Shown piece by piece: positions 16,915 to 57,357 of a stretch of DNA of 64,000 nucleotides. Made by a program: the position numbers and the translations under genes. Origin of the DNA: Balanoglossus misakiensis (Eukaryota; Animalia; Hemichordata); assembly GCA_040954595.2 (NCBI GenBank), contig CM082586.2:5504509-5568508 (forward strand). The letters run 5' to 3'. Numbering within the stretch: position 1 is the stretch's first letter; the number at the start of each line of letters is the position of its first letter. A model generated the notes under the pieces. The model saw only the letters and a list, made by a program, of their open reading frames with translations, made no database searches and had not been told where the DNA came from.

Positions 16915-17019
16915 ACCCGTTCGTCACGTTGGAAATACTAAGAGTTTATAACTGCTAAGAAATGTGCCCGGTACGTGTCTGTCTCGCGAAATTACGGCGA
17001 AAGAAGATTCGTTCCCCCC

Positions 17020-21956: not shown

Positions 21957-24829
<2,873 letters not shown>

Positions 24830-25709: not shown

Positions 25710-28481
<2,772 letters not shown>

Positions 28482-30728: not shown

Positions 30729-31419
30729 AGCGTTTTCAGTACAGATGTGGTGTGCCTTTGACATGAAACGCGTGTAAAGGCCCGACACGCAATGACTGTC
30801 TGAGTCAGCATCTCCGCGTCCGGACATGGAAACCTCGACAAACATGTCAAGACAACGCTATTTACACCGCTACATTTTTAGTTCAATTGCGGGCCACCTT
30901 TGACAAGGATAATTAATGTAAAATAATGTAACGTATTTGTCCAATTCAATTATACAAATTGTAGAAACTGAAATTCTCGTATATCACCTGACAAGGTGCA
31001 ACGTAGGCAACATGTAAGTGTCTATTGCTATGGCCATATCATAGACGGGTGAGATAATGAACTCCCATGAAATGACTGATTATAGTGCCGTCGATCATTC
31101 TGATGTAGTAGTTGCTTTATATTATGACATATACCGTCTATTTTCAATATAATAATGAACTGGGCAACACCATGTTCGTTCTACGTAATACGTGTCGTAC
31201 CCACTTTTACACGCATTATGGAAATTGAAAACACATGAGACATAGGTTTCATTCAAATTTGCAATTTCAACCTTTATTTAGCTTTGCATTTAAAGTAATA
31301 CGAAGTGTTGAAATTTACATCACATTCACTGAAAACACTTATTGTGCACGGTTGACTTTCGTTGATTTTCGCTTGAACAAGTTTGCACAATCAATCAACC
31401 ACGTTCTCCAAACTTTTCC

Positions 31420-34174
<2,755 letters not shown>

Positions 34175-35099
34175 GGTGGTTTTCTGAAAGGCAAACGAAT
34201 TTGTAACTAAATGGGTTCGGGTAGTATTTTTCAGCTTTCTGCCACAAAAAAACTCGACTGAAGTATCAGGAAGCGGCGAGATTCAAGAATTACAACGGCA
34301 GCCTTACCTTTTGTGTTTGGTCTGTTACCTCTTCGGTTCAGAAACTCAAAAGCGAATGGCCGAGTCTGCCGAACTGACCCCTACTTGTACGAAAATTTAT
34401 CTTAATCCTTTCCGCCGATCGGATCTCCACTCAGCCCACACGTGACACGAAGATGCCACCTGTTTCTTTCACATCCGTTCAAGTCAGGGTCCTTATCTCA
34501 AGCTTTTCACGTAACAAGCGACTCTAATTAAAAAAAATCGAGGTGCTGTACGTTGCAGCTTTCGGGGTATTGGACATTTACAAAGTTACCCGTTTGAATG
34601 TGCACTATAGACATTCCCGTCTCATATTGTCGCCTATTCTTACATATAAGGTCAGACTTCAAGTGGAGTCTACCGTAAGGCAAGATGTGGCGATGGCCTT
34701 GTTCGACATCAAACAGAAGTGGTTATAAGATGGTCGCAAATTTCATAAGGGGAATCTTTGTCTTTACTTGTTTCATGGCCTGAGTTTGACTTTGGCTGCA
34801 ATATGTTGATGACAAACCTGCTGTGAGTCAAATCCATTTCCATTTCACTTGTTGTGCCAACAGGCCCATTGTCACCCTGATTGAATGCTTTTGCAGCATC
34901 AGAAGGGACGGATTCATCATGATTCGGCCATGAAACGAAGTCATCAGACATCGAAATATAAAATGCCAGCCCACTTGCGACTGCATTTCTTGCTCTTCTC
35001 TAGACTCGACCTTCTCACAGCAGCTTGACCCGGCCCCCATTTGCAATCATTTTAGTGAGTGTGCGGCCTCGACGTTCAGCGAGCAGACCGAACACCACG

Positions 35100-36338
35100 C
35101 TGGCTACATGTGCCTGTCTTGCTTAGCCCAACCGTTGAGGACGCATCAGTGTACGGTATTTCAAGAGCCACGTACCGGAACGTGAGCTGAGAGTGAAGAC
35201 GGTTTCAGCAGTCGATCGCCACCTAGAGACAGAATGTATATGCTGCTATGATTTATGTTTCACGGCTGTTATAAGATGTAAAGTTAAAAATTGAACATAC
35301 ACAGTCATTGGTAACATGGAAACAATTTACAATCTGAAGTTTTAGTAGTCTGATAAAATTCCGCCCGTTTGTGACCTGTAGTTGTATGTATGCCAAGTGG
35401 CAAATCACAGTTGATACGGTATCGCGTGATCAGACAGCAATCGATATTTTACTGAACGAATTAACTGACAAGACCCGAATAAAACGAAACAAGATTCTAA
35501 ACCGACTTGAGTATTCAAGAGAAGTGTCAAGTGTTACAAAATTACATATCAAATATGTTTTATCGGATGCATATTCCTCACACAAGCCAAGAGATGTCAT
35601 TTCGCAGCACATCGTGCACACTTGTTTAATGTTTGTACCCGTTGTCAAGGGAACATCGACCAGGGACTGCTGTCAGCCATGAAACAAAAGCCACGCGGCA
35701 CAATTAATCAAACTGTTTATCACGCATCTGACAATGAGAAGCTTGAGGAGATGATCGACTTTAATCTATAGTTGGTTAATGTCCTACCTTTGAAACCAGC
35801 TCATCATGTCCTGATGGTCTGTAGATGATACGCAAAATCTGTACCGCACACATAGACAAACTGACTCCCTTCACCACTTCCATGCATGTTTAGTGTAAAT
35901 CAAATAAACGGCAAATCGTCAGTTAAAGGGGTCGTATACATAGGACACAGATTTATCAGCAGGTTTGTCATTGTAAATCTTGATATAGCGACACCAATGG
36001 TCGCATTAGCACGGGTAGAACCGGATGTTTGAATTGTGTCTGTCTGTTTGCAGTGTTTCATTCCATCTGATGACTATAAAGGAAAAATCAAAACAGGCAA
36101 AAAGCAAGGTTTATCGTTTAATAGGTTTTTCGAATTAGCTTTAACACTTGAAGATAAGTAGAGATTACATCTTAAAGAAGCCACGAGCCACCCAAGCGTT
36201 CGTAAAGAAGTAATGAATTAAAACCATTTGAGAAAATGAAAGTAAACTTGTTAAACCCAAACGCATCAACTAAGTACATCTGGTGTACACTATTGATAAA
36301 CAAATGAAAGCCTGCATAATAGATGAGCAGATGTGGAC
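35100..36338 (-). pseudogene. Decayed exons resembling a STING (TMEM173) ligand-binding domain (tentative)
   Basis: Three splice-bounded segments (about 36338-36278, 36070-35788, 35223-35100) give colinear peptides GPHLLIYYAGFHLFI / IRWNETL..VLPVLMRPL..ADKSVSYV / VCGTDFAYHLQTI..AGFK / GDRLL..LEIPYTDASSTVGLS, interrupted by stops and frameshifts. Confidence 0.35.
35349..35557. repeat. ~200-bp dispersed repeat, inverted copy of 53455-53667
   Basis: e.g. gacccgaataaaacgaaacaagattctaaaccgacttgagtattcaaga here, and its reverse complement at about 53498-53541. Confidence 0.85.
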
Positions 36339-36851
36339 CTGCACACAGCCAAATAAAAGGAGCCAACCAATCAGGGACTTGCATTTACAATATCATTTGG
36401 GTAAGAGAATATTTCTTTAAACAAAATTCAGCTGAGAGGGACCCCAAATTTGTAGCTTGGAAGAGTCTATCAGATTAAAACAATTGCCCAAAATAGAATA
36501 TGTAACAACTATTTTCATCATTGCAGTCGAAGTCGAAAAAAATCTGTCTGACTGGAAACTGAAAATCAGATTCGCAGAAAGATTATATATGTATATAATA
36601 GTAAGTTCTAGGAGGATTTTGGCAGTATTTCAGTTTCACTGCCCTAGAATTCAGTTTATTTGGTGCCTATTCATGTCCGTCTTACAATCAGTGGAACACC
36701 TCTGTAGATTGTTTTCGTTTTGGTGTGTTCGTGGTGCGTACCAATGCCTGGTTTATTGGATCACGCAACACCAACTGGGGGCCCTCCGGTATTTTGTTTC
36801 CACAGTTCTCTTGTATCACCCCTGGCATGTCTGGCCTCAATCGCTGACAGG

Positions 36852-39800
36852 TCAAATGGTCTGACCTGTGACCTCGCCAGGTGTTTGTTCGTCATCATTT
36901 GCCGAAGGCTCAATTTCGCGAACAGTGGGCTTTTCTTGGTGACGTTGATCACTTCTTGGCAACATCGATGGTTCTGTCAACTCTCCGCGCATGTCTTTCT
37001 CCTTGCGGTTTTGTTGGAGGCAACTCTCCTCAGACACCTCGCTCTGCTTGGCTAGTTCCGCTGTGTTCTCCGATATTCTCTCAAAATTCTGTGTTGACGT
37101 CTGTGTTGACCCCTCCTGCAGTGCAGCATTGAGGTCAACGGATCTCAGTTGCCACGATAGTTCAGTCTGAGTTTCCTGCTCCCTTTTGATACCTTCAAAT
37201 TTTCGTGGAATTCCATCCAAACATTCCAACCGGTTTACAATTTCGTTCATCCGTTCGTTGGTCTTGATCATCTGTTTTTCGAAGCCGTCCATTCTCAACA
37301 GTATGTCGCACTGATTCTTCTTGATTTCTTCAAGTTGACATTGAATATCAGGGGTGGGTGGCTGTTGGAATCTTTGCGTAATCCCAGATGCGCCAAATAG
37401 GCTTTCTGAAATAGCATCCGGTAGGTTGCGGAAGTATTCATGGTATTGGTAATTATCCACCGTATCAACTGATGGGGTTGAATAGTGTTGGGGTGAAACA
37501 CTGGTGTCCTCCGGTATAATTTTCTCAGGGGAAAGTGTTCCTTTGTCAGTGCAGAGCGAGGCATAGTTGGTAAGCTCTTGTGGATGCGATACAATTTCTT
37601 GCTGACCCTGTTGCTGCTGCTCTTGATGCTGCTGTTGTTGATGCTTCTGTGGTTGTTGTTGCTGTTGTTGATGCTTCTGTTGTTGTTGTTGCTGTTGTTG
37701 TTGATAATGCTTCTGTTGTTGTTGTTGCTGTTGTTGATGCTTCTGTGGTTGTTGTTGCTGTTGTTGATGCTTCTGTGGTTGTTGTTGCTGTTGTTGATGC
37801 TTCTGTTGTTGTTGTTGCTGTTGTTGTTGATAATGCTTCTGTTGTTGTTGTTGCTGTTGTTGATGCTTCTGTGGTTGTTGTTGCTGTTGTTGATGCTTCT
37901 GTTGTTGTTGTTGCTGTTGTTGATGCTTCTGTTGTTGTTGTTGTTGCTGTTGTTGATGATGTTTCTGTTGTTGTTGTTGTTGTTGTTGTTGTTGATGCTT
38001 ATTTTGTTGTTGTTGCTGTTGTTGATGCTTCTGTTGTTGTTGTTGTTGCTGTTGTTGTTCATGCCTCTGTTGTTGTTGTTGTTGCTGTTGTTGATTCTTT
38101 TGTGGTTGTTGTTGCTGTTGATAACCTAATGCTTGTGGCATTATATCGGAATATTGTGTTAAAGTTTTCACCAACAATGTGTAGGAAATGTGTGGGCAAT
38201 GAAAAAATCTACTATCTACTAGAAATTAAAGTTGCCTCTGTTCCATTCTGGTTCGAAAAAGTTTCCTTAACCCAGTTGCCATGCCAATTACAAAAACACC
38301 CCCAAATCTTTTATTAACTTTGATATGGTTTTATAGCAGTAGATAGTTCTGTGTTTTATTAATTTAACAAAGACTATAATACCGTGTTCAAATGATGAGT
38401 ATTAACAGTTTATTGCTTCAGTAAATGAATCATGCTAAACCCAACTTTATTAAAGGCGTTTAATGATAACCCGACGTGGACGCGATGTTTTCTACATACG
38501 AATTCAAAATATCATGTCTACCATGTGTTTTAATGTATGAGTATTTGTTATTGTCTAAATCTGTTTAATCTGTATGGTAACTGCGTTTGTTCAGTCCGTT
38601 GTTAATAAAGAGAATAGTAGAACTTTTGCTGCATATCGAAATGATGACCATTTTAAAGATGGAGAGAATGCAAAACTATAGTTTGGACAAGAAAACTTAC
38701 GATAGTCTTTTATGCGATCATTCAGGGTCTCCTGTTTGTCTGAAATTGCAAAAAGAAATTATCAGCCACATATCACCATGGCTTGGGAGAATGACCTGTG
38801 TTTTTTGAAAATGAAAAATGGCAAAAATAATAGGTGGACAAATAAAATATCAGAGTAACAAGAAAAAATAGTACACTTACGTATATCAGAAATGTTTGCC
38901 GCATAAGCAGAGTACAGCCTAAGAAACCACTTTGTCCCATTTCTAGCACATAAATCTTCCAGCTTTTCGCCAGTGAATTCACTGTGATCATCCTTCATAA
39001 GTTTTAACAGGTATCCCTGCAGTATTTCATACAACGATTTATCCGTGCATGTTTCGTCGATCATGGGCAACACACATACACTCCCTACTGTAGAAAGAAA
39101 GCAAATGTCGACATTATCATGTGGAAGTTAAGTTGGGTTGGGTTGCTCTTACCTATAGGCTAGCTTAAAATGCACATTCCGTTTCTCAGTGTCATCGTAT
39201 AGACATTTTTGTCGCGATGTACTTCTACTGCATTATTTGCAATGATGCACTATTGAGCAATTACACTTTGCGCCTAATTTGACTTGCTGGGAACTTCGTC
39301 ACGTGGGATCCAGACAGGACGACCCTCCTTCTTTTTCAGACTTTCTTCCGAACAGTCACACTTCCTGTCTCGAGTAAGGAGTATCAATCGAACCTGTACG
39401 AAAAACTATGATAATGTAATAGAGTATAAAGGCTACAACAAAAAGAGAAATACATCAAACTCACATTGTTTGTTTATATCTGCAATAGTATTCATACATT
39501 CCTTACAGTGGCAGAACCAAATCAGCCGGTCGCATTTCGATTTCGACATGAAGGAAAACCAAGATCCCTGATTGGATGAAGGAATCTGACTTACTAGCTG
39601 ATACAATTCATCATAGTTTGTACCTATCTTGCAGACCTCAGTCTTTGACGAAGTCTTTCTGTCGTAGAATGTCGTTAAGATGTTCTTGACTTTTTGGTCC
39701 TTTGTGTTAGGAAAAAGCATCGTATGACGCCCTTCGATGAGGTGGGATTTTGTATCGAATTCCTCTGTCTGGAACAGTAGAGTGTGAGATTCCAGATGTT

Positions 39801-40887
39801 CCTTATACTGTTTACGCTGACTGTCATTCCCAATTACCAATAGGTTGCATTCGCACACCATTCTGGGGAAGATGACCATTTCTTCGAAATATCTCCTTAT
39901 GGCAGTTTTTTGCGTTGCGTTAAATTCCTGCCAGAGAGAAAAACATCTTCCCTTCGCTGCAAGGCAACCTGCGAATCTATCCCTGTACGACCAAATTTTC
40001 AGAAAATGGTCAGAAACAATTTTGCCGTCTGCTAATTCTTCCGATTTTTCGTCGCCATAAAAGACGACCAGAAAGGAACCTGAAAATTAGAGGCGATGTG
40101 TTGCAGGTTAATGGTTTAGAATAATTCGTAACGTATTTATTTAAAAACAGTGCAAATTTGTTCTTTTGAGCTGAGAATACTATTCTGCGAATTTTAAATG
40201 ATCTCAGAGTCTAAAATCAATGGATTCGTAGTATGAACTTGAAAAACGAAGATACCTGCTCTCTATGCTCACACCCGTACATAATAAACAACAATTTGTA
40301 TGGAAATACATGTACAATCATTGAGCCAATCAGGTGCAATTGTGTGGGGTCTCATAATATTATCTCCATGATTGAAAACTTGATACATACTGTATTTGCA
40401 TTTGGGGTGGCCGTTTTCACAACCCAGGTGCAGATATTGCAAGCTGGCTGTAATCAGCCATTCACAGGCTCTTGTTTATACCACATGTAAAGGGCGCCAC
40501 ATACACAGTTACTATACCTATGATTGGGGTGTATTTCAATTGGAACTCTTATCACTGACTTCGCGTTATAAATCTGCGCACGGTTGAATCATATAACGTA
40601 CCCCGGGGCTTTGACACGGTCGTGGACAGCTCTTTGAGATCATCCCAGTGATCAACTGATGGGTCGCTGTCGGTTGGAGTCAGGAGGGCCCTCGTTTGCC
40701 TTGTATCTAAAACCACAACAGGAGTCACGGCGCTAAACTGCTCGTTCCTCTGCGGAGACGAATCCCTGGTGTACGTGTCGATAATGCATGTCATGTCACC
40801 TAGGATTTCTTTCAGTTGGTCTTTCACCATATCGTGGGCCTGTTGAAATGACTCAAATTTCGTGCAAACGAGGACTCGCTGCTCCAT
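36852..40887 (-). CDS. Uncharacterised multidomain protein: TIR-like alpha/beta domain, degenerate GTPase-like domain, helical region, polyQ tract and coiled coil
   Basis: Exons 40887-40602, 40079-39465, 39087-38881, 38739-38701 and 38218-36852 have canonical GT-AG sites, all phase 1, and join into one open frame. The first two exons are clearly paralogous to the 54097 gene (RQTR.L.TP...VDHWD.L; W.EFN..QK). Joining of exons 2-5 is inferred. Confidence 0.6.
37605..38122 (-). repeat. Coding CAA/CAG-rich repeat encoding ~170 aa of (Q)n-K-H units
   Basis: Repeated tgttgttgatgcttc units on the plus strand; in-frame polyQ on the minus strand within ORF 36852-38177. Confidence 0.93.
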
Positions 40888-41296
40888 TGTCTGGTGTCCG
40901 AGATTCCTGTGAACAAACAGAACATTTTTTCTTGTGTCAACTTGAGCGTCATAAATTTAGTCAAGTTTAGACAACTATTTGTACATCCTTACCTCTCACC
41001 GAAGGAAAATACTTCAATTCGCAGTTGTTCGCATATACGTCACCCACAAGCAATGCTATTGAATACACAGGCCTCAAACTACATGTACGAAAGCGCTGAC
41101 ATGGTTGGCAATCTCCTCCCAGTTCAAAGGTTAAATTGCAAATGAAAAACAACTACAAAGGTTAAAATGCAAATGACAAACAACTACAACTGAACCGTTC
41201 AGCTTAACAAGTTTTGTATCAGTATACCTGGCAGTGTCGAGAAGCCCCGTGCTGTACCTACGTCCATTATTATTTGATAGAAACTATATTCCAGCT

Positions 41297-44200
41297 ATGA
41301 CAAGCAACCTGATTTCGGTCCACGTGAAGAACTGTCGCGGGGGTAACGCGCTAGTCATAGAGTGCAAGGAATCGGAAAAAGTCAGCGATCTAGCGGCCAA
41401 ACTACATAAGAACGCCACACTGTTTGACATAAGTCCTGACGACATTAATCTGAACATACTGGACATCTACCAACCGCTCTCCAGTGGCAAGAAAAAATTG
41501 GAGTTCTTTGACCGCATCGCAAAACTGCGCGAAAATGACTATTTGGTGGAATTCGATCACCATCCCATTGAAAGTAAGTCGCTCATGCAAGACACATATG
41601 ACAAAGCGGTATGTCGCTATTGATAAGCACAATTTTTGTATAAAAAGCCAAACTTGATAATTGTCCCGAATCCCGGCCATTTCGCTGTATTTAACCGTCC
41701 GTAATTAAACCGCCCAAACCGTGAAGTTAAGTATTACATATCAAAGACAAAAAGGAAAAACACGTAGAGTTTTTTGCGGTTCTATATAAACAGTTAGACT
41801 TAAGAAATTGCGTTTGATGTGATCAACGCAAACTCACATTATGACACGGTTTCCACGTTTAGAACAAGAAATCAGAGTCAAGTACATTAAATCGATCAAT
41901 CCTATCAAGATCCGATGTGGCATGGACGACGCCATTTGTGATTTGTCGAACATCATTTCCACAAAATTGGGCGAATTCCCACTTGCGAGTGAAGAACGTG
42001 AACAAATTCAGGCGGAAGGAAGCGAAATACAGTTATTCCACCAGACGTCAGATGGGTCCCTGGAACCATTAGATCCCTTGCAAGAAGTCTCCAAGTTGCC
42101 TAGAAAGTATGTGGTATTTGATGTCTTGACACACGAGATGAAAACCCGTCGTGGAAAAAGTAAGTCTGGTGTTATCATCAATACGTTCTACATAAAGGTA
42201 TGGCTTTGTCGCATTTTAGCAATGAATATCCATAACCCAAAAATAAACGAGTGAGTCCTCGAGCTCGTCTCACAGGTGTGACCTTTTCGTATGTACAGTG
42301 TTGAACGGGTTGAAACTGTTGCCATTGGAGATTACCTTGCATTTTCCTTTCACCAAAATGCAAGGAAGACTTATACAGGTGTTATGCATTTTGATATGCA
42401 ATTCCTTTCTAATAAATTTTGTTTACTTTTTAATTTAAGGTAGTTTGCGTCTTGGGGACAGATTTTCACAAACATAATAGTCCTCCAAAATAAACCTTTC
42501 AATTCTTTGCAATATTAAAATGTGTGGGGCTTCTTTTTGTAAATACAGAAAACAGGATGTTCAGCGTTTCGTTTTATTCAAATCGTTTTATTTTTTTTCC
42601 CGTAGAGTTAACATAGAGATTGGTGGCCATTTTGAAGTTTAAGACAATGTTGATTTCTCATTAAAACATGACGGTGGCCCAAAAATTTTATTCTCAATTT
42701 CAAGAGAGGATAATCTCAGGTGTCCTTGAGCAAAATATGAGAGGTGCGTGCTACCTTGACTGGCCTCATTCTACGCCTGTCGGAGCAGGACCATAGACTG
42801 ATAGTATGCACACCCCCAATTAGTTCATACTTAAAACATTTATTTGCAGAAATCAAGTTATATGTCAAGCATTCAACCTCCAGACACACTGGGGTTATAG
42901 ACTGCTGGGAAAAGGACACAGTCGCGGATGTAATTAAACACATTAAGAATGGCGTCGATCGTTTCGGGTTGCTTGACACCAGAGATATGGATGACCCCCA
43001 AAAAATTGTTGTTTTGGTTAAACCTGGCCAAAAAGCAGGCGATGTCCCTGTAACACTCGAGCCGTACGATACGGTTGGTGATCTCCGAGACCAGATAGTG
43101 GAATTTCGCATGGAAAAGAAACTTTTAGTCGAAAAGGTGATAATCGGTAAGAACAGCACAATTTTATTTCTGTATTAGATTATTGCTGAAAATTTGTTCG
43201 CAGACTCGGTTACATTACAAGGGTTTTACTAAATCTGGGTCAGAGACTGTGATATTGAAATGCGTCCGTGTATTATTTAAGGAGGTACGTTACCATTCAA
43301 ATTTATGTGCGGATATTCATCAAACTAATTTGTCAAAGTACACGGTCAATCTGATCAAAACATTCTTACAGCATTAACATTGATATCTGTGTCATGTATG
43401 GTGGCAGAAAATGTTCATGACGAGCCTTCCATCAAATAAAAAATTGTTCCTAAAATCAAAATTTTTCACCATAATATTTCGGCATCCAGTATTTTTTTTA
43501 CAGGGTATGATGTTTATACTTTAAAACAGTAAGACACGTAGCATGTACATTTTTGTATCAGGCATGGTGCCTGATCAGCCTCATGGCGTTTCGCCTGCAC
43601 AGTCTTTATCTGCACCACATTCAAGTTCATGAAGTTGCTGAAGTTGCCCGTCTGGAAATATGAATGCCAACGTAACTGCGTCTGACGTCATTTGATATCG
43701 AAGAAAAGAACGTCCTGCGGACGTGACGCTAATGGCACAAGACCTGTAATTCACTTCGTAGTCCGTAAAAAAGTAGTGCAATGCCTAATATTTTGAGACC
43801 TGAATTGATGCTCGACAGGATTTACCATGGATATGTAGCATTTTTGAAGAGAGCATTTCGAAATGCATTCAAAATTCCCACTGGTGTGAGAGAATGTGGT
43901 GTAACGTTGTTGTACACAGCGGAATTATGCAAGGTGCATTGACTGCACACTTTGGCATGAATTTTATCAAAATTACCACTGGGGCGCTATTTTGATCTCT
44001 CCCGAAAAAAAATCCATGGATTTGCTAGTCTGGTCCCCTGCCCCAATCCCACCGCTGCGTGGGATTGGGGCAGGGGACCAGACTATTGACTTGCCTGCAC
44101 GAAAATTTAGCCTGTGCACAAATATACCTTGTTCTGACTGCAGTTAATGGGATTCGGCTCGCTGAACGTTACAAAATAGCTCAACGCTACCATTGTCATC

Positions 44201-46192
44201 TATGGAAAATGAATTACATGTTTTGCGCCTAGTCCGTTCCTCATCGAGAGGTAGCAACTGTCATGCATTGAGTCTTAGGATATACCAATGATAGAAGGTC
44301 ACCCAAAGGCGTCCATCCGCAAGACTCATATATGTGCTTCATAGCGCCCGAAGACGGCAGCTGATTGGCGTCGGTCAAACTATTCCGATGAAAATGCCTC
44401 ACAATTTAGTACGTAAAATGGATTTTTAGACCTTTTCACCAAACTATACTTTCAATGTGTGCGATTTCGTGTGTGATTATTTTCAGATGAAATCGAAGCA
44501 TTATGTGTTGGCCAAACGATTGCTTTCTTTGGTGCAGCTGGACATGGGAAGTCTTCAACAATCAACACCATCGGAGAGGTGAGATGTGTTTTCTACACTG
44601 TGTCTGAAATAGACCACTTTCCGAACTCAACGCGACTATGCGAGATCTCGCGAGCGTGGCAACGCAGTTTATATGAGAGGACATTCTCACGTGAAACATG
44701 ACAAACACCACATAAACCGCACAGAAGTTAGTTTAACTCATGCATCTGTTCAAGTTTCACACACAAAGTCTTATTTGTTTCTATTGATGTGCAGCGATAA
44801 TTAACCACGTACCGCGAAATCTCCCAATGAAAGGGAAATCATCTAGTTGCAATGATGTGGTTGACAAAAGCTTGGACACATTAGAATTGTCCGTTTCCCA
44901 TATATACTCCTCAAACACGGTCATGGTTTATGTACACTTTATTTCATTTTTGAGGCCCGGAGAAACCCCAGTGTTATACATGTATTAATTAAGTATTTAG
45001 CCAGACTTTTAGCTAGGTAGCCTACAATGCTTCTCGCCCCAGCTTTAAACATTAGTTTGTTTACCATTTTTGCTGTCTGCGTGTTTCTCAATCGTTTTTA
45101 CTGTGTGGCATAACACATAAAACACGCCCTTCTGCAGGTAATTTTATTTTATTACGAAACTTCAGGACGACTATGTTATACACGACATAGTAAATGTATT
45201 TGCTAAATTAGTAAGAGAAAAGGTCATGTAAAAAGCTTCTAGTATTAGAATTAAATTGTAAATTTTGCAGAATGACTGTGAAGTCGTTCTTGTAGGCCTA
45301 GTGTGCCATTAGAGCCTAGTTCACCGTAAGCTTAGTGCCTGATTTGACACTATCTCGCAGGTTGTGCCCGGTGTAGATTTTCCTCTTGCTGATGTGTGGA
45401 AAGGAACGGCTGCTGGTACAATTGTTATCTCACCGTATGAAATTAAAGTCGGAAGTCACAAGTTCACCTTCCTGGATGTTCCCGGCAACGGATTTCCCGG
45501 GTACGAGTCGCAAAGCGAAGAAAAGGAGACTTGCAATGTCCTTCGATGGATTCTACGGGGGGAATTTCCAAAGGACGCTAAGCCTAATTTCTGGGCGACC
45601 AATAACATGTTCAAATTCAAATCCTGGCTGACCTACATTAGGAAACCTAGCACTGGGAAAGTGCAGATGGCGGTAATAGTACAAAACGCAACTTGTACCC
45701 CGGACAAACTGGGTACTTTAGTGGTTTCCGGGGCAAGACAGGAGAAAGGCAAGTAGAATATCTTATAATAATCGAATGAAAATACACCACATGTATGTGT
45801 GTAGACACACATACACATACAGACACACACAACCCCCCCCACACACACGGCATTACACATTTCGATGCCATTCAGTACATGCAGTAGAACTACCTTCGAT
45901 TTTAGACTTAAGAATTAATTCAGTATTGTCTGTGGAATTTTTTTTTGCAGGAAATGGAATCCCAGTGGCAGCGGTAATGACACATGTTGACAAATTGAAA
46001 GACGACGGCGAACTGCAAAAGAAGATTACTGAACTATCAGAGATTACTGGCATCGACGAAAAATACATATTTCCCATTTCAAACAAGTCGGATAAAGGTG
46101 ACTACCTGAAGGGATCAGAAAGAGGGAACTACGTCCTTTCTATGCTGAAACAAATGTTAGCCAGGTCTAAAAGATACAAGTCCGAATCTTAA
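41297..46192 (+). CDS. IFI44-like P-loop GTPase with three N-terminal ubiquitin-like domains (gene 1)
   Basis: Exons 41297-41573, 41863-42159, 42850-43146 (each a ~95-aa beta-grasp-like unit, phase-1 introns), 44487-44578 (Walker A GAAGHGKS), 45361-45748 (FLDVPG, WILRGEFP, YIRKPS; GC donor) and 45951-46192 (VMTHVD, IFPISN, YVLSMLKQML). Confidence 0.8.
42436..42760. mobile_element. Degenerate non-autonomous DNA transposon (TTAA-flanked, Kolobok-like MITE) in intron 2
   Basis: Left end ttaaggtagtttgcgtc, right end gaggtgcgtgctaccttga (imperfect inverted). A related left end, ttaaggtggtgcgcaccttgtggacagat, occurs at about 10288. Confidence 0.5.
44026..44085. repeat. Perfect 60-bp palindrome (27-bp arms, 6-nt loop), MITE-like
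   Basis: tagtctggtcccctgccccaatcccac-cgctgc-gtgggattggggcaggggaccagacta. Confidence 0.9.
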
Positions 46193-46469
46193 GCAGCTCA
46201 TTTGCCAGAGACAGAGAAAAGCAAACATTTTGAAAACTAAAACGCAAATAGGATTAAACAAACAGACAACAAAGAAACAAATAATAACGCGTTTGAAGTT
46301 AAAACCATTGCTAAGCATGTACCCAAAACATTAATTTATTCAGTAATGTGACAACTGTATAACGCCTGGTCGTACATTGTAATTTGATCGTTGCATTTCT
46401 ATCAGACACTTTTGTGTCATGAATTGAAAGATAATTGCTAAATGCCATAATGCTTTATCGAGTCACGGT

Positions 46470-46830
46470 ATAGCTAGTTTTTAAACGAATGATCATTTTG
46501 TACCAAGAAATGTATTGGTTCTATTATATAATGCTTTTATATTACCTTATAACGTATGGTCTAGAAGTTTGGGGTACTGTATATCCATCTTCCTTGAATA
46601 CTACATTGTGTATTTATATTCCCCCAAAATGTATGTACGGGCAATAACCTTTTCTGGATTTCAAGTGCCCTCTCCATCATTATTCCAGAAGTTGGGAATT
46701 CTAGATGTTTACAAACTTCACAAGTTTCTCGGGGGAATATTCATGTTTGATTTAAAGGAGCAGAAGTTTCCTTTTCCTATACGAAATTACTACGAAAGAG
46801 TACATCATTGTTATGACACTAGAATAGCTA
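46470..46830 (+). mobile_element. Decayed LINE (L2/CR1-like) ORF2 C-terminal fragment
   Basis: LYNAFILPY, LFQKLGILDVYKL..FMF and HCYDTR are typical post-RT LINE motifs, with frameshifts. Confidence 0.65.
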
Positions 46831-47130
46831 TTCTTTGCAAATTTTGTAACGGTCCCTTTCTGTCAGTTTGTTATTCTATCGAAATGACAATTATTTGATT
46901 TGCAACAAACATGGAAGAGGTAAAGGACCATTAACTATTTGCCCATGTTTGCTGTATATTTTATTTGTGTCTCATCGACAATGTACAAATCACATGATAT
47001 TAAACATGTAGTAAGTACAGAAAAATTGAGCACGGTGTGTTGGCTACCGAATTAAGACATCCAAATATAGATTAAAGTAGATTATCAATTCTCAAGCCTT
47101 TGTCAGGTACGAGATAAACAGTTTGATTAA

Positions 47131-47483
47131 TTGCATTGTGTGTCTTTCGATTTGGTCGAGTTCCTAATGGATATTTCCATGGCACCGAATACAAACATGG
47201 TGCACTCCATACAGTTTTCTGTGTTTGTTTTCCGTTTTTTTTCTAGTTATTCATACACATATATATTTCTGAATGTAGATTTGCGTTTAAGCAGTTTACT
47301 TTGATTTTCTCAACTGGTTTTAATTGACTACTAGTATTTCTTGTCTCGTGGCTTCTAAATCTGCAACCAAATAAAACGCTGTGACGTTGCTTTCTCTTTT
47401 GCCTGTTTTTTTTCGTAGAAGGAAGGCTTCGCGGAATCCTGTCAATGCCTTAGTCATCATGGAATGCTACACCGATATCGTAA
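47131..47483. repeat. ~350-bp near-identical direct repeat (copy 1), downstream of UBL-GTPase gene 1
   Basis: ttgcattgtgtgtctttcgatttggtcgag...gctacaccgatatcgtaatg recurs at about 52031-52410. Confidence 0.9.
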
Positions 47484-48539
47484 TGCAAACAGGCTGGCAC
47501 AAACAAATCCTGATTTAAGCTGTTCTAATGAGACCGTTTGTGTCAATGATTTTTTTTTCTTTCAAATTTGGCTGCCCTGGTTATGTCTCTTTAAATTATT
47601 GGGTTGTCAGCCACAGCGTAGAACCGAATATACATGTATCTTTCCTCTATCGTGTATTCGTGTTTCCAATACAAAGAAATCTCTTTGATTTACATCAAAC
47701 CTTCAAGGGAGTGGTAATGGACTATTGGTAGTTTGTCTTTCTTTGCGCCTCATCTACAGTTACTGTACGCAATGTGAACAGAACAATCAGGCATGGTGTG
47801 TTGGCTGCAAAAGTAATACATTAACCATAGCCAGGGTCCCTGCGTTAACCAACTACATTTAAGTAGACCAACTACTCAAGTATGTGTCAGATACGAGATA
47901 AACAGTTTGATTAATTTGTTTTGTGTCTTTTGATAATGGCCGACCTGAATCCTTTGGAGCGATGGCTCCAAATATAAGAGACAATGTTATTCACGCAGAG
48001 CTCTATATTTAAATGCACTTTAACATTTTGCATTTTAACGAATTCGAGCTGTGAAGTAGTACATTACAATAAAATACATTCGACTTTGATTTCTTTTTTT
48101 TCAATTATACAGGAACAAATATAAATAATAAGAAAAATATCATCAACCAGAATTATGTTGGAACAGTCAGAAGAAAGCACCAAAACTCGATGTCTGACTG
48201 TAAATCCGTCCCCAAACTGGAATAAAATGTACAACACAGTTTGCTTTCGCTTTGTTCACTTCGCAGAATTGTTATGTTGGATTTGTGCCATAGCCCTAAT
48301 TACAGTATAGTTTATAACGCAAGCGCACGCATTCCAAAAATTCCCTGATAAAGCGGCGATGGTCGGCTGATAGACAAAGTCTACCCACCACTTTGAATAC
48401 TCAAACTGTAATTTCTACTAACAGGGGCCATAGTACGAACGACCATTCGAACTAAAACAGCATTACTCTGTTTGATCTACTTGATCAGTACACTCGCCGG
48501 GGTCTGTTTGGTGCGCATACGTTTATTGTACCCGAAAAG

Positions 48540-51157
48540 ATGTCTGACAACACTGTAACCGTTATGGTGAAGTATGCCCCTGAAGATGGAAACGCTTTAC
48601 CCATCGAATGTGACGCAGGCGGGACAATTTTCAACCTTGCCAAGGAGATAAAAAGCCAAGCTCACCTGTTCGATCTTCAGGAAAGCGATATCAAATTGCA
48701 GTCTGTCGGGATGTTCACACGTAATGAATCCGGTATGATGGTTCTTTTGAAGATGAATGACAAGATAAAAGACCTGGAACAAAACGGGTGGCAAGTTGAA
48801 TTCAACAACCATTCCAGAGAATGTGAGTACCTTTAATATCAAACAGAGTACACGCGTGCATGTTAGCCTGTGCCATACACATATATTAACCGGGGCCTAT
48901 ATATTAAAATAAATACCACTTAAACAATATTTCTAAGTGTTCAAAAAGACAATGAAAAGGTAGATCGACACTTTTTCAAGAAAACTTTTTTCTACGACTG
49001 TCGTTTTATGATGCAAAACAACGTTAACACTTAGACAAAAATAATATATGAGATAAACTTTGACAAAAAAGAACATATCCTAGGAGCGAGATAATATCGC
49101 AATACAGTACCAGCCTTGTCAATGCTGTATAGAGCATTAAGGTTGTTCTCCTTATACCGGGGTGAGACATTGATTTTTTAAACACGAATTTTTTGCAGGT
49201 GTTAAGATAAATGTGAAACTCAAAGGATCAAGTACTAGAAAACAATTTAGCTTTTCTGAGAAGCAGACGGTTGCAGACCTTATCGAATGTATTATAAAAG
49301 ACATCGGCAACTTCAACCTTGCATCACCTATGAAGGAAGCATTAGAAGCAGGTGATGAAGAAATAGTTGTCTCGCCGATTCCTCCAAATCCTTGGGATTA
49401 TGTGGACACCCTAAGGCCAAGTCAAGTACTTAACACATTGGGCGAAGAAAACTTGCAATTTTTTGTAACACCGAAACGGAAACCACCTTCACTTGGTAAG
49501 CTCCACCCATTTGTCAACTTTACAATTACAGTATATGTTTTGTATATAGCAATCATAGAAAAGATTTTACTTTCGGACTCCATTTAAATGATTTAACTAG
49601 TGTGTAACCGCTGATTGTGGCATGTAAATTAATGTGAACACGTTAAATAATAAATGGGTGCCTCACCCGTTATTCAACTGCCAATTGCAAGAGTACACAA
49701 CTATCGTGGTATGTGCATATGGATATTAAAAAGAGTCAAAATAGTGTCATTTGTTGACTAAGGAGAAGATTGATGTATTTTATTGATTAAAAATATGATA
49801 AAAGTGGCAGCTATTTGCGCTTTAAATGCATCCTTTTTTCTATACCATAACTTGCAGAACAACGTACACGTCACATCACTATCTGCAATATATATCCTTT
49901 ATGATTTCTACATGTGTGCTTGTTCATTTGTTTGTTTTCCCTAGACGACCTATCTAAACTGTGTGTTGGTCAAAATATTGCCTTTATTGGCGCATCTGGC
50001 CACGGGAAGTCAACAACCATAAATACAATCGTAAAGGTAAATGAAAGTTTAATTTTCATGGGATTGGACTATGTAGATAAGCATTTTGCAGAGAGTTACT
50101 TTTATTGGATATTCTGAAGTTAAAATCTGCATTGTTGCACTCAGCAATTATATGAAACATGGTAAGAGATCGGATCCACTATTTTCATGATGTGACTTGA
50201 GTACGTAACCCGTTTATTACCATGTGTTACCAACCGGACGCGGAGACTTACATTTCTAAACCTCAGCGTTTATACCTTAGGCTAGCACTAGCTGCCCTGA
50301 TACCACACCCATTATGACGACCCAAATTCGAGATTTTAGTACTAGAGCGGCATGATAACAGTACGTCCACTTTTCTTCGTTTTCCAGGCTTTGGGCGGAA
50401 AAACGACTATTGCGGAGACGACCGCTGGCGCTGCAACAGGCACACATATTGTGACCCCTCACGATGTAACGATAAAAGGAAAACCCTTTCGAATCATTGA
50501 TGTTCCCGGTATCACCGTGAAGCTAAGCCCCGACAGCAGCAAGGTGGTAGAAAAACAAATCCGTTATATTCTAGATGGCAATTTCCCAGAAGAATTCAAA
50601 ACAGACTACTGGGAGACCTCTTATAAATTTGTAAGATGGTGGAAATACATGAAGAGCACTAGTATCGGCAAAGTTGACGCTGTCATCATCATACACAAAG
50701 GCACAGCTACAGCAATAGATCAAGTTGCAAGTATTGCTACAAATGTGGCCCTGACTATAGGTAATGTTTGTTCTTGTTTAAGTTAATGTATGTATAGTGA
50801 AGGAAACAAAATGTTATTCTTTCTCAAATTGGACTGTTATATACATAAATGTTGTTACTTTTTATATACATTTTCTATAATTTTTGTATTTATACAGGTA
50901 GAGGTATTCCCATTTTTGGCATTCTTACACACATGGACCTATTGGATGATGACGCCAAGAAAAGGGAAAGTAAGGAAACGTTGTCGGTAGGGGCCAATAT
51001 CGATGTGTGCAACATCTTTCCTCTGTCCAATCTGCAGCAAGAAGCTGGATCGAGAAGTCATGGTGGAAAAGACAGGGATGAATACGTGCTGACCATATTT
51101 GAGACTATTCTACATAAATCCAAGAATGCCAAAACAAAGGGCCAGGTCGGGATATAG
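48540..51157 (+). CDS. IFI44-like P-loop GTPase with two N-terminal ubiquitin-like domains (gene 2)
   Basis: Exons 48540-48822, 49199-49495, 49945-50036 (GASGHGKS), 50388-50760 (IIDVPG, YILDGNFP) and 50898-51157 (ILTHMD, IFPLSN, DEYVLTIFETIL); intron positions and phases in the GTPase part match gene 1. Confidence 0.82.
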
Positions 51158-51904
51158 AGACAATACATTAGGATTGTTTTTGTATGCGATTTATAACTGA
51201 CCCCATGACAATTATTGCATGTGTGTTACTGTATTCTAAGCGATCCGTGCAATAATATTCCGGTATGCAAGCTCATATGCAAATGAGCATAAAAATAATA
51301 AGATCCCAAATCGTATCTTGCAAAGTTTATCCCTCTTGCTGTTTTATAATCATTTGTAATTTTATATATACCTCAGGCTCCGGAGAATTAACAGAAATCT
51401 TATTTTAGTTGCAAAAAGCTGATTGCTGTTTTAGTTGTGCAGTTGACAAACTGGTATTTTTACAGTTCATATGCAAATTAGTAAAAACAAAATGGGACCA
51501 CGTTCTGTATGTCAACATTGAACGCCATCAGTAGTCTAACTGGGGAATTTTCAACATTATATTATCCTTCCCAACTGTCGTCAGAATAAGACACAACATT
51601 TAGTTGTCAGTATGTTTAGCCTTTAGGAATCTCGAAATTTACGAAGATCTCTCGCTACCGCCAATGTTCTCGCTATTGCTGATGCGACTCGTGACCTGAG
51701 CGATCAACTGAACCAACATGACCCGACTTTGCATAACAAAGGATTTGTAACTTTGCCTTATCATCACTTTGCCTAATCATTAACCGTCTCTGGGTGGCTT
51801 CGTCTTTACTGTACTGTACTGAAAATTAAAACGCCACGATATCGAAGCGCGAATTGTCGTCAAATCCGAGGAAACATATGCAATAAAAAGATAATGTTAT
51901 TACG

Positions 51905-52017
51905 TCTGCGCGCGATCTGTGCCGTACGGATGTTATTTTCACTCGTGAAAGTACTGCCGTAGAGTACATCCGATCACTTGTGAAAATAACTTCTATACGG
52001 CACAGATCGCGCGCAGA
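51905..52017. mobile_element. ~113-bp hairpin/MITE with long terminal inverted repeats
   Basis: tctgcgcgcgatctgtgccgta ... tacggcacagatcgcgcgcaga is a perfect 22-bp inverted repeat, extended imperfectly by gttattttcac/gtgaaaataac. Confidence 0.75.
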
Positions 52018-52030
52018 AGTTATATGTCAA

Positions 52031-52480
52031 TTGCATTGTGTGTCTTTCGATTTGGTCGAGTTCCTAATGGATATTTCCATGGCACCGAATACAAACATGG
52101 TGCACTCCATTTAGTTTTCTGGGTTTGTTTTCCGTTTTTTTCTAGTTATTCATACAAATATATATTTCTGAATGTACGTTTGCGTTTAAGCAGTTTACTT
52201 TGATTTTCTCAAATGGTTTTAATTGACTTCTAGTATTTCTTGTCTCATGGCTTCTGTACCCTATCTTTAACTGTTAAAGCTAAATCTGCAACCCAATAAA
52301 ACGCTGTGACGTTGCTTCCTCTTTTGCCTGTTTTTTTTCGTAGATGGAAGGCTTCGCGGAATCCTGTCAATGCCTTAGTCATCATGGAATGCTACACCGA
52401 TATCGTAATGTGTCAGATACGAGATAAACGGTTTGATTAATTTGTTTTGTGTCTTTTGTTTCGTGACCGACCTGAATCCT
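52031..52480. repeat. Direct repeat copy 2, downstream of UBL-GTPase gene 2
   Basis: Matches 47131-47483, then 47884-47950. Confidence 0.88.
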
Positions 52481-53454
52481 TGGTCGATGCTTCCATGGTA
52501 ATCGACAGAAACATCAAATAACAGTAAAGCTCGATGTCAAAGATCGCCGGGGAGTTTGTGGTCGAGCCAACGACCTGTGCCAGCGGACGATGATCAGAAT
52601 TTCAATTTGTTTGTCTTGTGTTTCAGTGTTCTGTAGTATAGTCAACTCGTGTATAGATTTTTGTGAGTAACTTTAAAGACTCGGCCTGTCAAGGTCTAAT
52701 TTTTTCAGAGTAATACATCGACAAATGTCGAATCGAAGTTTAAAGCGCCAGTAAGCTTGTGGCCGCTGCTGCCGGGGGCATTAACAGTCGTTCGCGGTGG
52801 ATGCTAAAACAGCTGGGAGAACAACAGTACACAGAAACATTAAGGTGGTAGATTTCGCTCTCTAACAAAGATAAGTTAAAATCAAGTGTTACTTCCGCCA
52901 CCAATGTCCCAATTTATGCCAGAAAATGTCGGTTACGGATGGATAATATTTAACATAGTTACAAAACTATTTCCAGAATAAGTTCCCTACACTGCATCCA
53001 TTAATGGCTTCCTATCGTGTTATTCAACCAAGCCAGAAACAGAGGAAATGTTGTTTCCCATCGTGTCACGTTCATGTACAAGTTATTGTTCAATAAATTA
53101 AAATGTGTCCGCTCTAAGTTTAACGGCTTTCTGACACTCCAAACAAACTAAAAGCTTGCCGTTCTCCTTAATCAAAGCTCCCTTGTGTGATCAAAAGGGT
53201 AGTTAAGTGAACACCATTTCCCCGGTAGTTCTATTATCTAATAAACGAGGAACCTGGATATTTGGTCATTCCAAGCGAATATCCCCAAATTAGTTTCAGA
53301 AATGCCGGGATATTACCGCAGATCAGTGAGTAGTGACATCAGAACACTTGGAGATCATGAACTTCATGATTGAACAGTTTTAACTTTACATGGAAATTAA
53401 ATTGAGCTTGAAAAACCTCTTGGTTTATTGTGTGAGTAATATGCAGATAACCAC

Positions 53455-53667
53455 ATGCATTTTAGATGTTTTTTATGACACTTGATACTTGTCTTGAATA
53501 CTCAAGTCGGTTTAGAATCTTGTTTCGTTTTATTCGGGTCTTCTCAGTTAATTCGTTCAGCATAATATCGATTGCTGTCTGATCGCGCGTTACAGTATCA
53601 ACTGTGATTTGCCACTTAACATACAATCAACTACAGGCCACAAATTAACAGGCGGAATTTTATCAGA
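53455..53667. repeat. Inverted copy of the 35349-35557 repeat
   Basis: Reverse-complement match by eye over about 200 bp. Confidence 0.85.
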
Positions 53668-54096
53668 TATACTTTGTACTCTTGTCAACTATACTAGTAT
53701 TTATCACGTGTTGCGATTTTATCTGTAATACAGAGGGCGCCGGACACCTAGACAACGAATGCCATCACAGTGATGCGACAGCGACAGAACGTAGCCTTCA
53801 CAATACACTTAGTATATCATCAAACCGTCAAACCCATTTTGCCCTACCAGAGGCATTACATGCATTAAACAAATTGGTATTTTTCGTGATTTTGACGATC
53901 ATATCATTCGTCTGGATTGAATTGAAGTACATGTATATGGGTAGTTTCGTTTTGTCACAAGTACATTATTCGCATCATGCAGTAACGTCATGTTGAGGCG
54001 AAAGGTCACAAGGGTGCGCGCAGTATCAAACGTATTGGCCGAACGTCTGTCAGGTTGTTGCTCTGTCTATAGGCACGCATATGTTCCACTTCCAAC

Positions 54097-56232
54097 ATGT
54101 TTGCAAAACCAAAACATTACGTATCAGTCGAAACTAAGCTCGGTAGCTTTCGCACAGCAGGGGGGAAAGTCAGAGGCCTCCTCGAGTCAATATTGACAAA
54201 TGATTTCCTGGTGGAGGAAAATGGCGCAAAGCGGAATGACCTCAGTAACTTTGCCAGTAAATCAGCGGTTATAGTGATCGACGCCAGGCAGACACGTAGT
54301 CTCTTCACCCCGTCGCGAAGAGACGCGAACGTCGATCACTGGGACGAACTTGACCAACTGACCTACTCGTTCACTTTCCCAAAAGGTAAGGCTATTCTGT
54401 CATTGTCTGTACACTTGGAAAAAACGCGCAAGTATGAAAAGATCGACCGTGAAACTAAAAGGAATAAACAGAAACAGCATTGGGACGTTGGTGTCTAAAA
54501 TTTACAGCAGGACGATGGTCCTATATAGCTTGTAACTAATTTGCTCTTGAATTGAATGGCCGGGGTCGACGCCAGAAGTTAAACTATTCGGAACTTACTA
54601 ATCGAAACTAAACTCTATTTTAAAGAAAAACATTGTTTCTCTAAACACAGGTTCCGTGCTTCTTGTTATCTACGCGGATGAGAAATCCAAACGTTTAGAA
54701 GACCTGTTTTCAGAGAAATGGAAGAAGGTTTGGCATTCTAATGACGGCATCGCCTACAGTCTAGCAGAAAGAAGACGTTGCATTACAATGTGGGAAGAAT
54801 TCAACAGCAAACAGAAGGAACGCTTGAAAGAATTTTTCCAAACGGAAGTTCCTCTGTTTACCTTTTACGAGACCCAGCTTAACCAATGTTTTGATCAGAA
54901 GAGTCGCTTGCATCGCTTTGTTCGGTGGTTTGTTCGTTCGATTCGCAGAGTTTCTGATTTTCAAACTGTCCTCGTCATTGGAGCTGGTGAGAAAATTCCA
55001 GAAAACCTCTGTCAATATTTTCAGCTGAATCCATTCTTCAGTAGTTCCAGTGAAAACGACGAAACATACCAAGCATACGAGACCAGATTCCACCAGCCCT
55101 CTAAGCCAAAAATCGTTAAGGTGTATCAGGTCGTGCTCCCTGTTGAAGCCAGCCAACATTACAGGGAAGCTCCAAACGTGATGATTGAGAAACTCCGACC
55201 GTCAATCAACGACCTCACCATACTCAGATTCAGAAATGGCTTGCCAAATATCCCAAGAGTAAGGCAGGTTGTCCAACGCATCTTCAGCTGGGTATGGAGT
55301 CCACTGCGCGGTGCCTTGGCACTGAATATACCGGGCGGTTTCTTCATTCGACCTTTGACTTACGATGCATTACTACATGTCGCTGACAGCGAGGAATGTT
55401 TCGTTGACGCTGTTGATGGGATCGACGAGGTTACCCAAAGCTTCAGTAAGTTACAAATATGTTTACTGCTGGGAAATTTTCATGAGAATGCCAACAACAT
55501 GACAATTTACTTTGTAACTTGGGATAAAACGTGACAGTTTTAGCGTGCTGGCAGGGTATGCTTATGCTATTCTGTAAACGTGGAACTGCGACGTAGTGTT
55601 GGATGGCTCTTTTGCAATTCGCGTTCATTTATTCATTTCTTTGACCTGGTAAATTAAAATTATAACGCCCATCCGACATTTTTGCAAACATATAACCTCC
55701 AACTCGTTAATCCAGCAAAATGTGAGCAGGGAATATACCGAGTTACATGATATAAGGCAAAAAACTGCTATGTGCTGTTCCGATTACATGGATTTCAAAA
55801 ATAAGGTAGATAGGTAGGGAAATTTTTTATTTTGCAATTTTTTTATATCATTGGCCGCCGTAGTGTAGAAGAATGACGTCACAGTTCTTGTGTGATTCTC
55901 GCAATTTTCACAAGTTTTTGTACATTTCACATTGTTTGTTTTCAATTTCCGGTGTAGGAAGCTCGAAAAAGTATAGGATCGGCGGGCTAAAATTAGGGTA
56001 GTTCGGGTAATCGGAACAGCACATATTTTTTTATTTGGTCTAAACCATATTCGTCTGTTATCTACTGCTATTAAAATCATATTCTTGTTCATATTTTATA
56101 GAAGACGCTGGTGTCATTTCCATTGGCAACGCCATTCCTGTGGTTCCAGATGGCAGCACTTCTACAAAGAGAGTTGCTCAGAAAGTGGATGAGTTCTTTT
56201 CTGGTCCTAACCAGTCACAGTCGGTAGTATAG
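54097..56232 (+). CDS. Uncharacterised protein: TIR-like domain plus degenerate GTPase-like domain (paralog of the 40887 gene)
   Basis: Exons 54097-54385, 54651-55445 (strong gtaagt donor; read-through would stop at 55534) and probable 56102-56232. Same phase-1 intron positions as the paralog; AVIVID..HWDELDQL..VLLVIY pattern. Confidence 0.65.
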
Positions 56233-56586
56233 AAACCTCGCCAGATTTCGAAGATGGCGCGGTTGGGCCTGGTCTACTTCAAGAGACCACATACGGATCA
56301 CATTTTCTTGATATCATCGATGCTTATGCATGGCAGTTGGCTCTGAATTTAACTGAATTTATAAACTTATTTGTCATGGTGCTCATAATTACAAGGAGTG
56401 TAGACTACTTCTGTCATAAGTAATTGCCAAAGTAGTACAGGTAGTCACCCGCTTCTTAAACATATATATCAACATTTGATCCGGTCCAATCATTCAATTT
56501 GAGTCTGGCAATACCAGCTTGTGAAGTAAAACTAGTTTTAAAAATCTCCAAAATACGACATTTGTGAAAATAATAAATGAAAAGTC

Positions 56587-56624
<38 letters not shown>

Positions 56625-56833
56625 ATTTGATCCAAGGCCATCAATTACCAAGTGTCGCAATGACATACGGGTAATATTCGGTCATCCTGCATGTCAGCTG
56701 TTCATTACAATAATAAACTATAGGCCTTATTTTGGCCACGCATGTGGGTAATTAAATTTCCAAGGTGTGTACTTGCCCGCATCGTTCTTACGCTCACAAT
56801 GTTAAAACAGTAGTGGAATGTCAAAATTGATAT

Positions 56834-57357
56834 GTGGGCAAGTTCACAGCTAAACAAGTCAAATATAAATGTTTCTATGTGTCAGCTAACATGCTTAACA
56901 GAAATTTTTTCAGATGTACTTTTGATATTAAGAGTATTCTTTTCAAAACATATTGTTACCATATGTATGGAAGCCCAATGCGGATAAAATTCTCTGTCAG
57001 TACAATGAGGAAATTGAAAGTTGCATATAACAACGCTGCTCGTATCCTCTTGGGATATGATAGACGTAGTAGAAGTGCGAGCTCTATGTTTGTGACAAAT
57101 AGAATAGATACGTTCGATGCCCTGCTTAGAAGGCAATTTGTTAGTCTAAAGCAACGACTTTTGAACTGCCAAAATGTAATTGTGCGGCAAGTGCATGACA
57201 CACTGTATTTTAATTCTGAAAGTTTGAGCTCATGGAGTAAGCTTCTTTTTGCAATCTAGATATGTATGTAATTTTTTTCCCTTTCACCTAATTAGTCTTT
57301 CTGTAATATGGATCTTGAGTCCGAAATAAAGTTTATAATAATAATATGTAATAATAA
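56834..57357 (+). mobile_element. 5'-truncated LINE (RTE-X-like) 3' end
   Basis: LFKTYC..MYG..KLKVAYNNAARILLG..SASSMFV..FDALLR C-terminal ORF2 motif, followed by a 3' UTR ending in aataaagttt(ataat)n. Confidence 0.75.

Follow-up and report, generated by a model that had tools for sequence, protein, structure and literature searches.

We analysed a 64,000-nucleotide stretch of the genome of the hemichordate Balanoglossus misakiensis (contig CM082586.2 of assembly GCA_040954595.2, positions 5,504,509 to 5,568,508 of the forward strand; hereafter the window), in which four genes, here named A to D, lie between subtilase and DEG/ENaC genes. The gene models were built ab initio from the DNA of the window and checked by homology. 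All four genes are multi-exon and follow each other in the order A (minus strand), B, C and D (plus strand), encoding proteins of 806 (A, 5 exons), 530 (B, 6 exons), 434 (C, 5 exons) and 404 (D, 3 exons) amino acids (aa); the introns have AG acceptors and GT donors, with a single GC donor in gene B, and the frames contain no internal stops (Table 1). The proteins fall into two paralogous pairs, B/C, whose GTPase domains share 34% identity (E 4e-47), and A/D, which share 38% identity across 162 aa (E 1e-30). An original prediction for this DNA had proposed four multi-exon genes from two paralogous families in this order and orientation, between subtilase and DEG/ENaC flanks; splice signals, open frames and homologue alignments bear out the genes, the two pairwise alignments bear out the families, and Pfam matches confirm both flanks. 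The cluster of two gene families is thus real. Genes A and B are arranged head-to-head, and the spacer between their start codons is likely a shared promoter.

Table 1. Exons and associated features of genes A to D (positions within the window)
Feature	Position	Strand	Remark
A exon 1, coding; first half of conserved domain 1	40602..40887	-	family profile E 1e-32
A exon 2; remainder of domain 1 and most of domain 2	39465..40079	-	aligns with Glandiceps XP_077989751.1 (P0010)
A exon 3; end of domain 2	38881..39087	-	domain-2 profile E 2e-6
A exon 4, 39 nt, phase 1-1, predicted	38701..38739	-	splice signals and frame only
A last exon; polyglutamine tract, then likely coiled coil	36852..38125	-	open frame
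Gln-rich tandem repeat, period 15/30/96/126 nt	37612..38120	-	within A last exon
Head-to-head spacer, A start codon to B start codon	40888..41296		410 bp between starts
B exon 1, probable ubiquitin-like repeat 1	41297..41573	+	B1-C1 E 4e-14
B exon 2, probable ubiquitin-like repeat 2	41863..42159	+	297 nt, phase 1-1
B exon 3, probable ubiquitin-like repeat 3	42850..43146	+	297 nt, phase 1-1; OTU1_UBXL E 2.8e-4
B exon 4, G1 GxxxxGKS	44487..44578	+	
B exon 5, G3 DxxG then Asn; GC splice donor	45361..45748	+	
B exon 6, G4 THxD and stop	45951..46192	+	
C exon 1, probable ubiquitin-like repeat 1	48540..48822	+	Crinkler N-terminal E 0.021
C exon 2, probable ubiquitin-like repeat 2	49199..49495	+	297 nt, phase 1-1; OTU1_UBXL, PI3K_rbd E 0.019; FERM_f0 E 0.063
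C exon 3, G1	49945..50036	+	
C exon 4, G3 DxxG then Ile	50388..50760	+	
C exon 5, G4 THxD and stop	50898..51157	+	
D exon 1, coding; domain 1	54097..54385	+	61% identity with Ptychodera XP_070533631.1
D exon 2; remainder of domain 1, domain 2	54651..55445	+	match E 1.7e-44
D exon 3 and stop	56102..56232	+	P0001 alignment extends to residue 393/404

GTPase domains and N-terminal repeats of B and C

In B and C the G1, G3 and G4 motifs are intact and in order (residues 306, 360 and 461 of B; 209, 262 and 359 of C), and a profile comparison of the B/C G domain with 25 bacterial MMR_HSR1 domains gave a probability of 98.8% (E 8e-17). By these motifs and this profile homology, B and C belong to the TRAFAC P-loop GTPases, and the GTPases of the original prediction hold. 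The catalytic Gln that follows G3 is lacking in both proteins. The GC-AG intron of B (donor at 45748, plus strand) sits where C has a GT-AG intron.

The prediction had further named these proteins after IFI44. IFI44 has the G1 sequence GxxxxGKS, a hydrophobic residue after the G3 DxxG, and a G4 motif (10.1101/2020.02.24.963900). B and C are like IFI44 and IFI44L in the G1 sequence, in a residue other than Gln after DxxG and in the G4 motif, while the hydrophobic residue is shared by C but not by B, and the G1 and post-G3 features in common also occur in other GTPases. IFI44 carries a TLDc domain (PMC5614904, PMC11682996), whereas B and C begin with two to three probable ubiquitin-like repeats, and no exon scanned gave a TLD match in Pfam. 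The motifs are therefore compatible with the label but the N-terminal TLDc domain is absent, and 'IFI44-like' is a fair lead for B and C rather than a result.

Ahead of the G domain lie related repeats of ~95 aa, each on its own phase-1 exon, three in B and two in C. Beta-grasp families of Pfam were matched by three of the five repeats, every match falling below the cut-off (the OTU1_UBXL match of B repeat 3 reached 21.8 bits against 22.7), and ubiquitin itself came third in the ranking, after unrelated chains (E 0.56). The repeat numbers that had been proposed, three and two ubiquitin-like domains, hold, and their identity, to which sub-threshold matches point, is probable. Tandem ubiquitin-like modules are found in ISG15, the tail of OASL and the Crinkler header, which the repeats resemble in length and in weak matches to four beta-grasp families; unlike those modules, they precede a GTPase, match below cut-off and lack a C-terminal di-glycine (0 of 5), so that conjugation of the ISG15 type is unlikely.

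Neither C exon 4 nor an alignment of B/C exons recovered a protein relative in word-based searches, a null result of little weight, and no relatives of the GTPase exons appeared in viral or metagenome contigs. Three prokaryotic GTPase matches were set aside as chance: the two that were checked run off-frame inside other genes, presumably phosphorylase-like and MraY-like, and the match in L001 covers 14 residues.

An expanded family defined by A and D

A profile search with the A/D family across 1.84 billion representative sequences (E<=0.001) returned 38 matches; one of them (P0038) was judged a repeat artefact and removed, so that 37 were retained. The 21 relatives that were looked up come from Glandiceps talaboti (12), Ptychodera flava (8) and Saccoglossus kowalevskii (1), and all are annotated 'uncharacterized'. 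Every one of the P. flava members lies on one 40.3-Mb contig, and 11 of the 12 G. talaboti members lie on one 24.6-Mb contig, two of them being isoforms from one locus. No Pfam, NCBIfam or PADLOC entry matched the shared domains in any member, the PADLOC and NCBIfam hits in the family being scattered, single-member matches. Protein D aligned with P. flava XP_070533631.1 at 43% identity over 403 aa (E 3e-103), and A exons 1-3 with G. talaboti XP_077989751.1 at 36% over 373 aa (E 2e-67). In a quick tree, built without P0038, duplicates and four rows that were short or partial, A paired with a Glandiceps protein (support 97) and D with a Ptychodera protein (support 99). Since the orthologue that each groups with belongs to a different genus of acorn worms, the subfamilies are old.

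Conservation is good in the first shared domain (domain 1, ~165 aa), where Asp, Arg, Gln, His, Trp and Glu residues hardly vary and a near-invariant D-x-R-Q-x-R loop is kept together with several invariant acids. Between D and its orthologue, domain 1 is 57% and domain 2 37% identical, indicating much faster divergence behind domain 1. A P-loop motif was found in none of 39 family sequences within their first 400 residues. The C-terminal parts vary. A strongly hydrophobic C-terminal segment occurs in 13 of 37 relatives and is absent from B, C and D, the three cluster proteins scanned. In gene A the predicted polyglutamine was confirmed, Gln making up 73% of residues 381-560; A exons 4-5 have no homologue support beyond composition, and their models rest on frame and splice signals, the acceptors 38125 and 38218 of the last exon both preserving the frame. 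The A orthologue P0010 also has a coiled-coil-like C-terminal tail (KASH_CCD E 7.5e-4, below cut-off).

Splice-like signals near 40995 and 40907 (minus strand) point to upstream exons for A, and those at 53734-53876 and 54073-54096 (plus strand) to in-frame upstream exons for D; in both genes these are probably untranslated because the homologues begin at the chosen ATG. An open frame of 70 codons at 56211-56423 (plus strand), which includes a hydrophobic stretch, overlaps the 3' end of D in another frame; since a membrane-type tail is common among its relatives, the tail of D may exist in an alternative or frameshifted form. A single-sequence fold of D exon 2 was discarded (predicted local distance difference test score, pLDDT, 36.6). 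In P0017 and P0036, Kazal repeats or an LDL-receptor A domain are annotated behind the hydrophobic segment, and these are either receptor-like fusions or merged gene models.

Outside the retained relatives, the family profile found no match in 201 sampled bacterial genomes (a search made without a positive control), P0001 had no relatives in metagenome contigs, a protein atlas search with P0001 residues 1-170 gave no usable match, and PDB sequence searches gave nothing specific. Comparable shuffled immune expansions with other core domains are described for hemichordates (PMC8195603), among marine-invertebrate expansions in which TRADD-N proteins are fused to AIG/GBP GTPases, STING and polyubiquitin. 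The present cluster is like these in having expanded in hemichordates and in combining GTPase and ubiquitin parts as shuffled modules, but it has no TRADD-N or Death-like Pfam match, and the passages on those expansions show no A/D domain. In titles and the openings of abstracts, most subscription papers and supplements lying outside the search, neither the A/D family nor a hemichordate cluster of ubiquitin-repeat GTPases was described, and the cluster is apparently undescribed so far. Orthogroup tables in hemichordate genome papers could include the A/D family.

Predicted GTPase-like folds, a link between the families and a possible switch

In structure predictions, domain 1 adopts a P-loop-like alpha/beta fold, and the A/D family is predicted to consist of stacks of inactive GTPase-like domains. 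The original prediction had read domain 1 as TIR-like and domain 2 as a degenerate GTPase. For domain 2, which lies outside the coverage of the fold matches, the strand-helix order fits a G domain but the profile comparison does not reach significance (E 0.39-0.7), and at the sequence level the reading as a degenerate GTPase was not borne out. The broader idea of active GTPases next to P-loop-less proteins of GTPase-like fold is supported, the folds being predicted. A phase-1 intron lies directly before the G4 strand in B/C, and in A/D one likewise directly precedes the corresponding strand of domain 1, the fourth, a match that offers a post-hoc hint at a common origin.

The TIR reading leads to one alternative, in which domain 1 would be a divergent TIR-type or nucleotide-cleaving effector, restrained by the GTPase-like domain and released by the ubiquitin-like GTPase, with NAD+ cleavage or signalling as its output. 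Domain 1 resembles the TIR NADases and the oyster TIR-STING protein (PDB 6wt7, a weak Foldseek match) in its predicted three-layer alpha/beta topology, and a Glu conserved in 34 of 38 sequences stands in a compatible helix and falls on the TIR Glu in a forced alignment. However, that alignment is not significant (probability 0.7%, E 0.038), domain 2 yields a similar one over 108 columns, and the candidate site holds Glu in D but Asp in A. Local profile tests of domain 1 failed against TIR_2 (E 0.03), Cap12 TIR (E 0.14) and nucleoside deoxyribosyltransferase (within E 0.03-0.14), while the control pair, TIR_2 against Cap12, scored 95.6% (E 1e-8). Pfam TIR was matched neither by P0009 at E<=1, nor among the 25 families listed for 41 rows, nor by any of the 37 relatives at E<=0.01. 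Among the top 50 matches listed in the fold searches, one was a TIR domain, ranked behind many GTPases, and none was a STING domain; the F-x-S-Y/H motif occurs in 1 of 39 sequences. The TIR label thus found no sequence-level support, and we regard a TIR-type effector as unlikely, if worth keeping in view.

A STING-like remnant, also claimed for this locus, was not recovered. The Pfam library that was scanned contained both STING_LBD and prok_STING, and neither matched any of 300 segments (21 + 143 + 136); a bacterial STING profile run against 312 six-frame pieces of the window, with stops as X, gave a best E of 1.8, although a badly decayed animal-type remnant could escape such a scan. At the guessed site of the claimed remnant (34712-35245, minus strand) there are short, stop-broken frames with no family match.

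The two families are also linked beyond the window. A third domain is present in four A/D relatives selected by visual inspection, two of them Glandiceps proteins (P0009, P0027) and two Ptychodera proteins (P0012, P0014). It aligned from end to end with the GTPase of B/C (global probability 90%, E 2e-7), scoring above 100 of 100 shuffles, but not with generic GTPases. It folds as a G domain in the predicted structure but lacks G1 and G3, and the fusion junction is similarly tight in the four proteins. In two other acorn worms, then, the families are fused or, at the least, neighbours, which strengthens the idea, contained in the original prediction, that they belong together. The third domain begins at about the place of a phase-1 intron in A, and a phase-1 intron also marks the start of the G domain in B/C, so that modules of the two families are splice-compatible; the phase match by itself is weak, because phase 1 prevails in the four genes (13 of 15 introns, window 36852-56232).

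Clusters in which one GTPase acts on another are known from the GIMAP/AIG1 family. GIMAP7 drives GTP hydrolysis by GIMAP2 (PMC8201404), and a GIMAP arginine finger is described (PMC8066113). The present locus differs from the GIMAP/AIG1 type in that A and D lack a P-loop, B and C carry ubiquitin-like repeats, and the A/D family has to date been seen in hemichordates only; in scans of single exons, the best AIG1 match reached 16.6 bits (E 0.005) against a cut-off of 27, on a 30-aa exon. GIMAP8 has three G domains. With close to an even chance of being right, we propose that the B/C GTPases and the A/D proteins, predicted to be inactive and GTPase-like, pair in a GIMAP-like manner as a GTP-controlled switch, probably in innate defence. 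B and C would bind GTP, with hydrolysis requiring dimerisation or a partner in view of the missing Gln after G3. The D-x-R-Q-x-R loop of domain 1, which may lie at the position of the GIMAP finger, would be the contact surface on the partner GTPase and possibly a trans arginine finger. The variable tails (polyglutamine and coiled coil in A, membrane-type segments in relatives) may hold the complex in place or make it polymerise, and the ubiquitin-like repeats, shuffled as exons, may serve as bait or adaptors. It is the behaviour of the family alone that suggests an immune role.

Two further readings compete with this switch. No member has an immune domain above the curated cut-off, and the A and D orthologues in other genera point to old, retained subfamilies rather than recent turnover. 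Both would fit a hemichordate-specific, non-immune system, in membrane trafficking, secretion, tissue-specific scaffolding or self/non-self recognition, whose immune look comes from lineage-specific expansion. However, expansion, clustering, variable tails, exon-shuffled modules and the much faster divergence behind domain 1 are typical of conflict genes; moreover, IFI44 homologues are induced during a cnidarian antiviral response (PMC13319465). We hold a non-immune system to be unlikely. In the second reading, the families adjoin by local duplication or insertion without joint action, and the proteins with three domains arose by merged annotation or as fusions that lead nowhere. For it speak the degenerate state of the fused third domain, the fact that the RefSeq models are predictions, and that active B/C orthologues were not found elsewhere in the word-based exon searches. 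Against it stand the comparably tight junction that four proteins of two genera share, the adjacency that even merged models would show, and the 410-bp spacer common to A and B. We consider such a neighbourhood quite improbable.

A bolder extension of the proposed switch would make domain 1 a new catalytic immune effector, nucleotide-cleaving and intermediate between TIR and G-domain folds, which acorn worms expanded into a family gated by the stacked dead GTPases and switched by the neighbouring ubiquitin-bait GTPases. The locus would then be an animal defence island that exchanges its sensor, switch and effector parts in the form of phase-1 exons; we consider this improbable. The cluster is a variation on the theme of active and dead immune-type GTPases. 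Hemichordates adjoin the base of the chordate lineage, and to our knowledge their intracellular immune repertoire has been little studied. The locus reveals an expanded family unnamed in Pfam, NCBIfam and PADLOC, in which a polar site is strongly conserved and which is physically linked to a ubiquitin-repeat GTPase. Should the pairing be true, it offers a simple two-protein test of how dead partners switch Gln-less GTPases of the IFI44/GIMAP type; should domain 1 prove to be an enzyme, animals would have a further, new immune effector; and if neither holds, the family is still new and lineage-specific.

Surroundings of the cluster

On the plus strand at ~2000-10300 lies the 3' part of a large gene, presumably resembling VPS13B, two exons of which were scanned with no Pfam match at E 0.01. 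It is followed on the minus strand by a multi-exon glycoside hydrolase family 9 (cellulase-type) gene at ~12000-17000 (one exon E 1e-19) and by tandem subtilase genes, apparently three copies, at ~21000-34200. Segments 46485-46898 and 56831-57259 (plus strand) had no Pfam match, and we take them to resemble the 3' ends of non-long-terminal-repeat (non-LTR) retrotransposons.

Motifs like the interferon regulatory factor (IRF) element number 10 in the window against 4.45 expected, with at least 10 in 3 of 100 shuffles; 7 lie in the cluster, two of them closely upstream of C and D, and none in the A-B spacer. This excess was left out of the evidence because the pattern was picked after one site had been seen. 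NF-kB-like motifs in the window were at chance level. Two inverted segments, 35349-35585 and 53428-53667, are 87% identical, and shorter repeats are common to 35622-36263, 47061-47485, 47845-47954 and 52029-52521. These repeats around the cluster are likely mobile-element fragments and could have aided local duplication.

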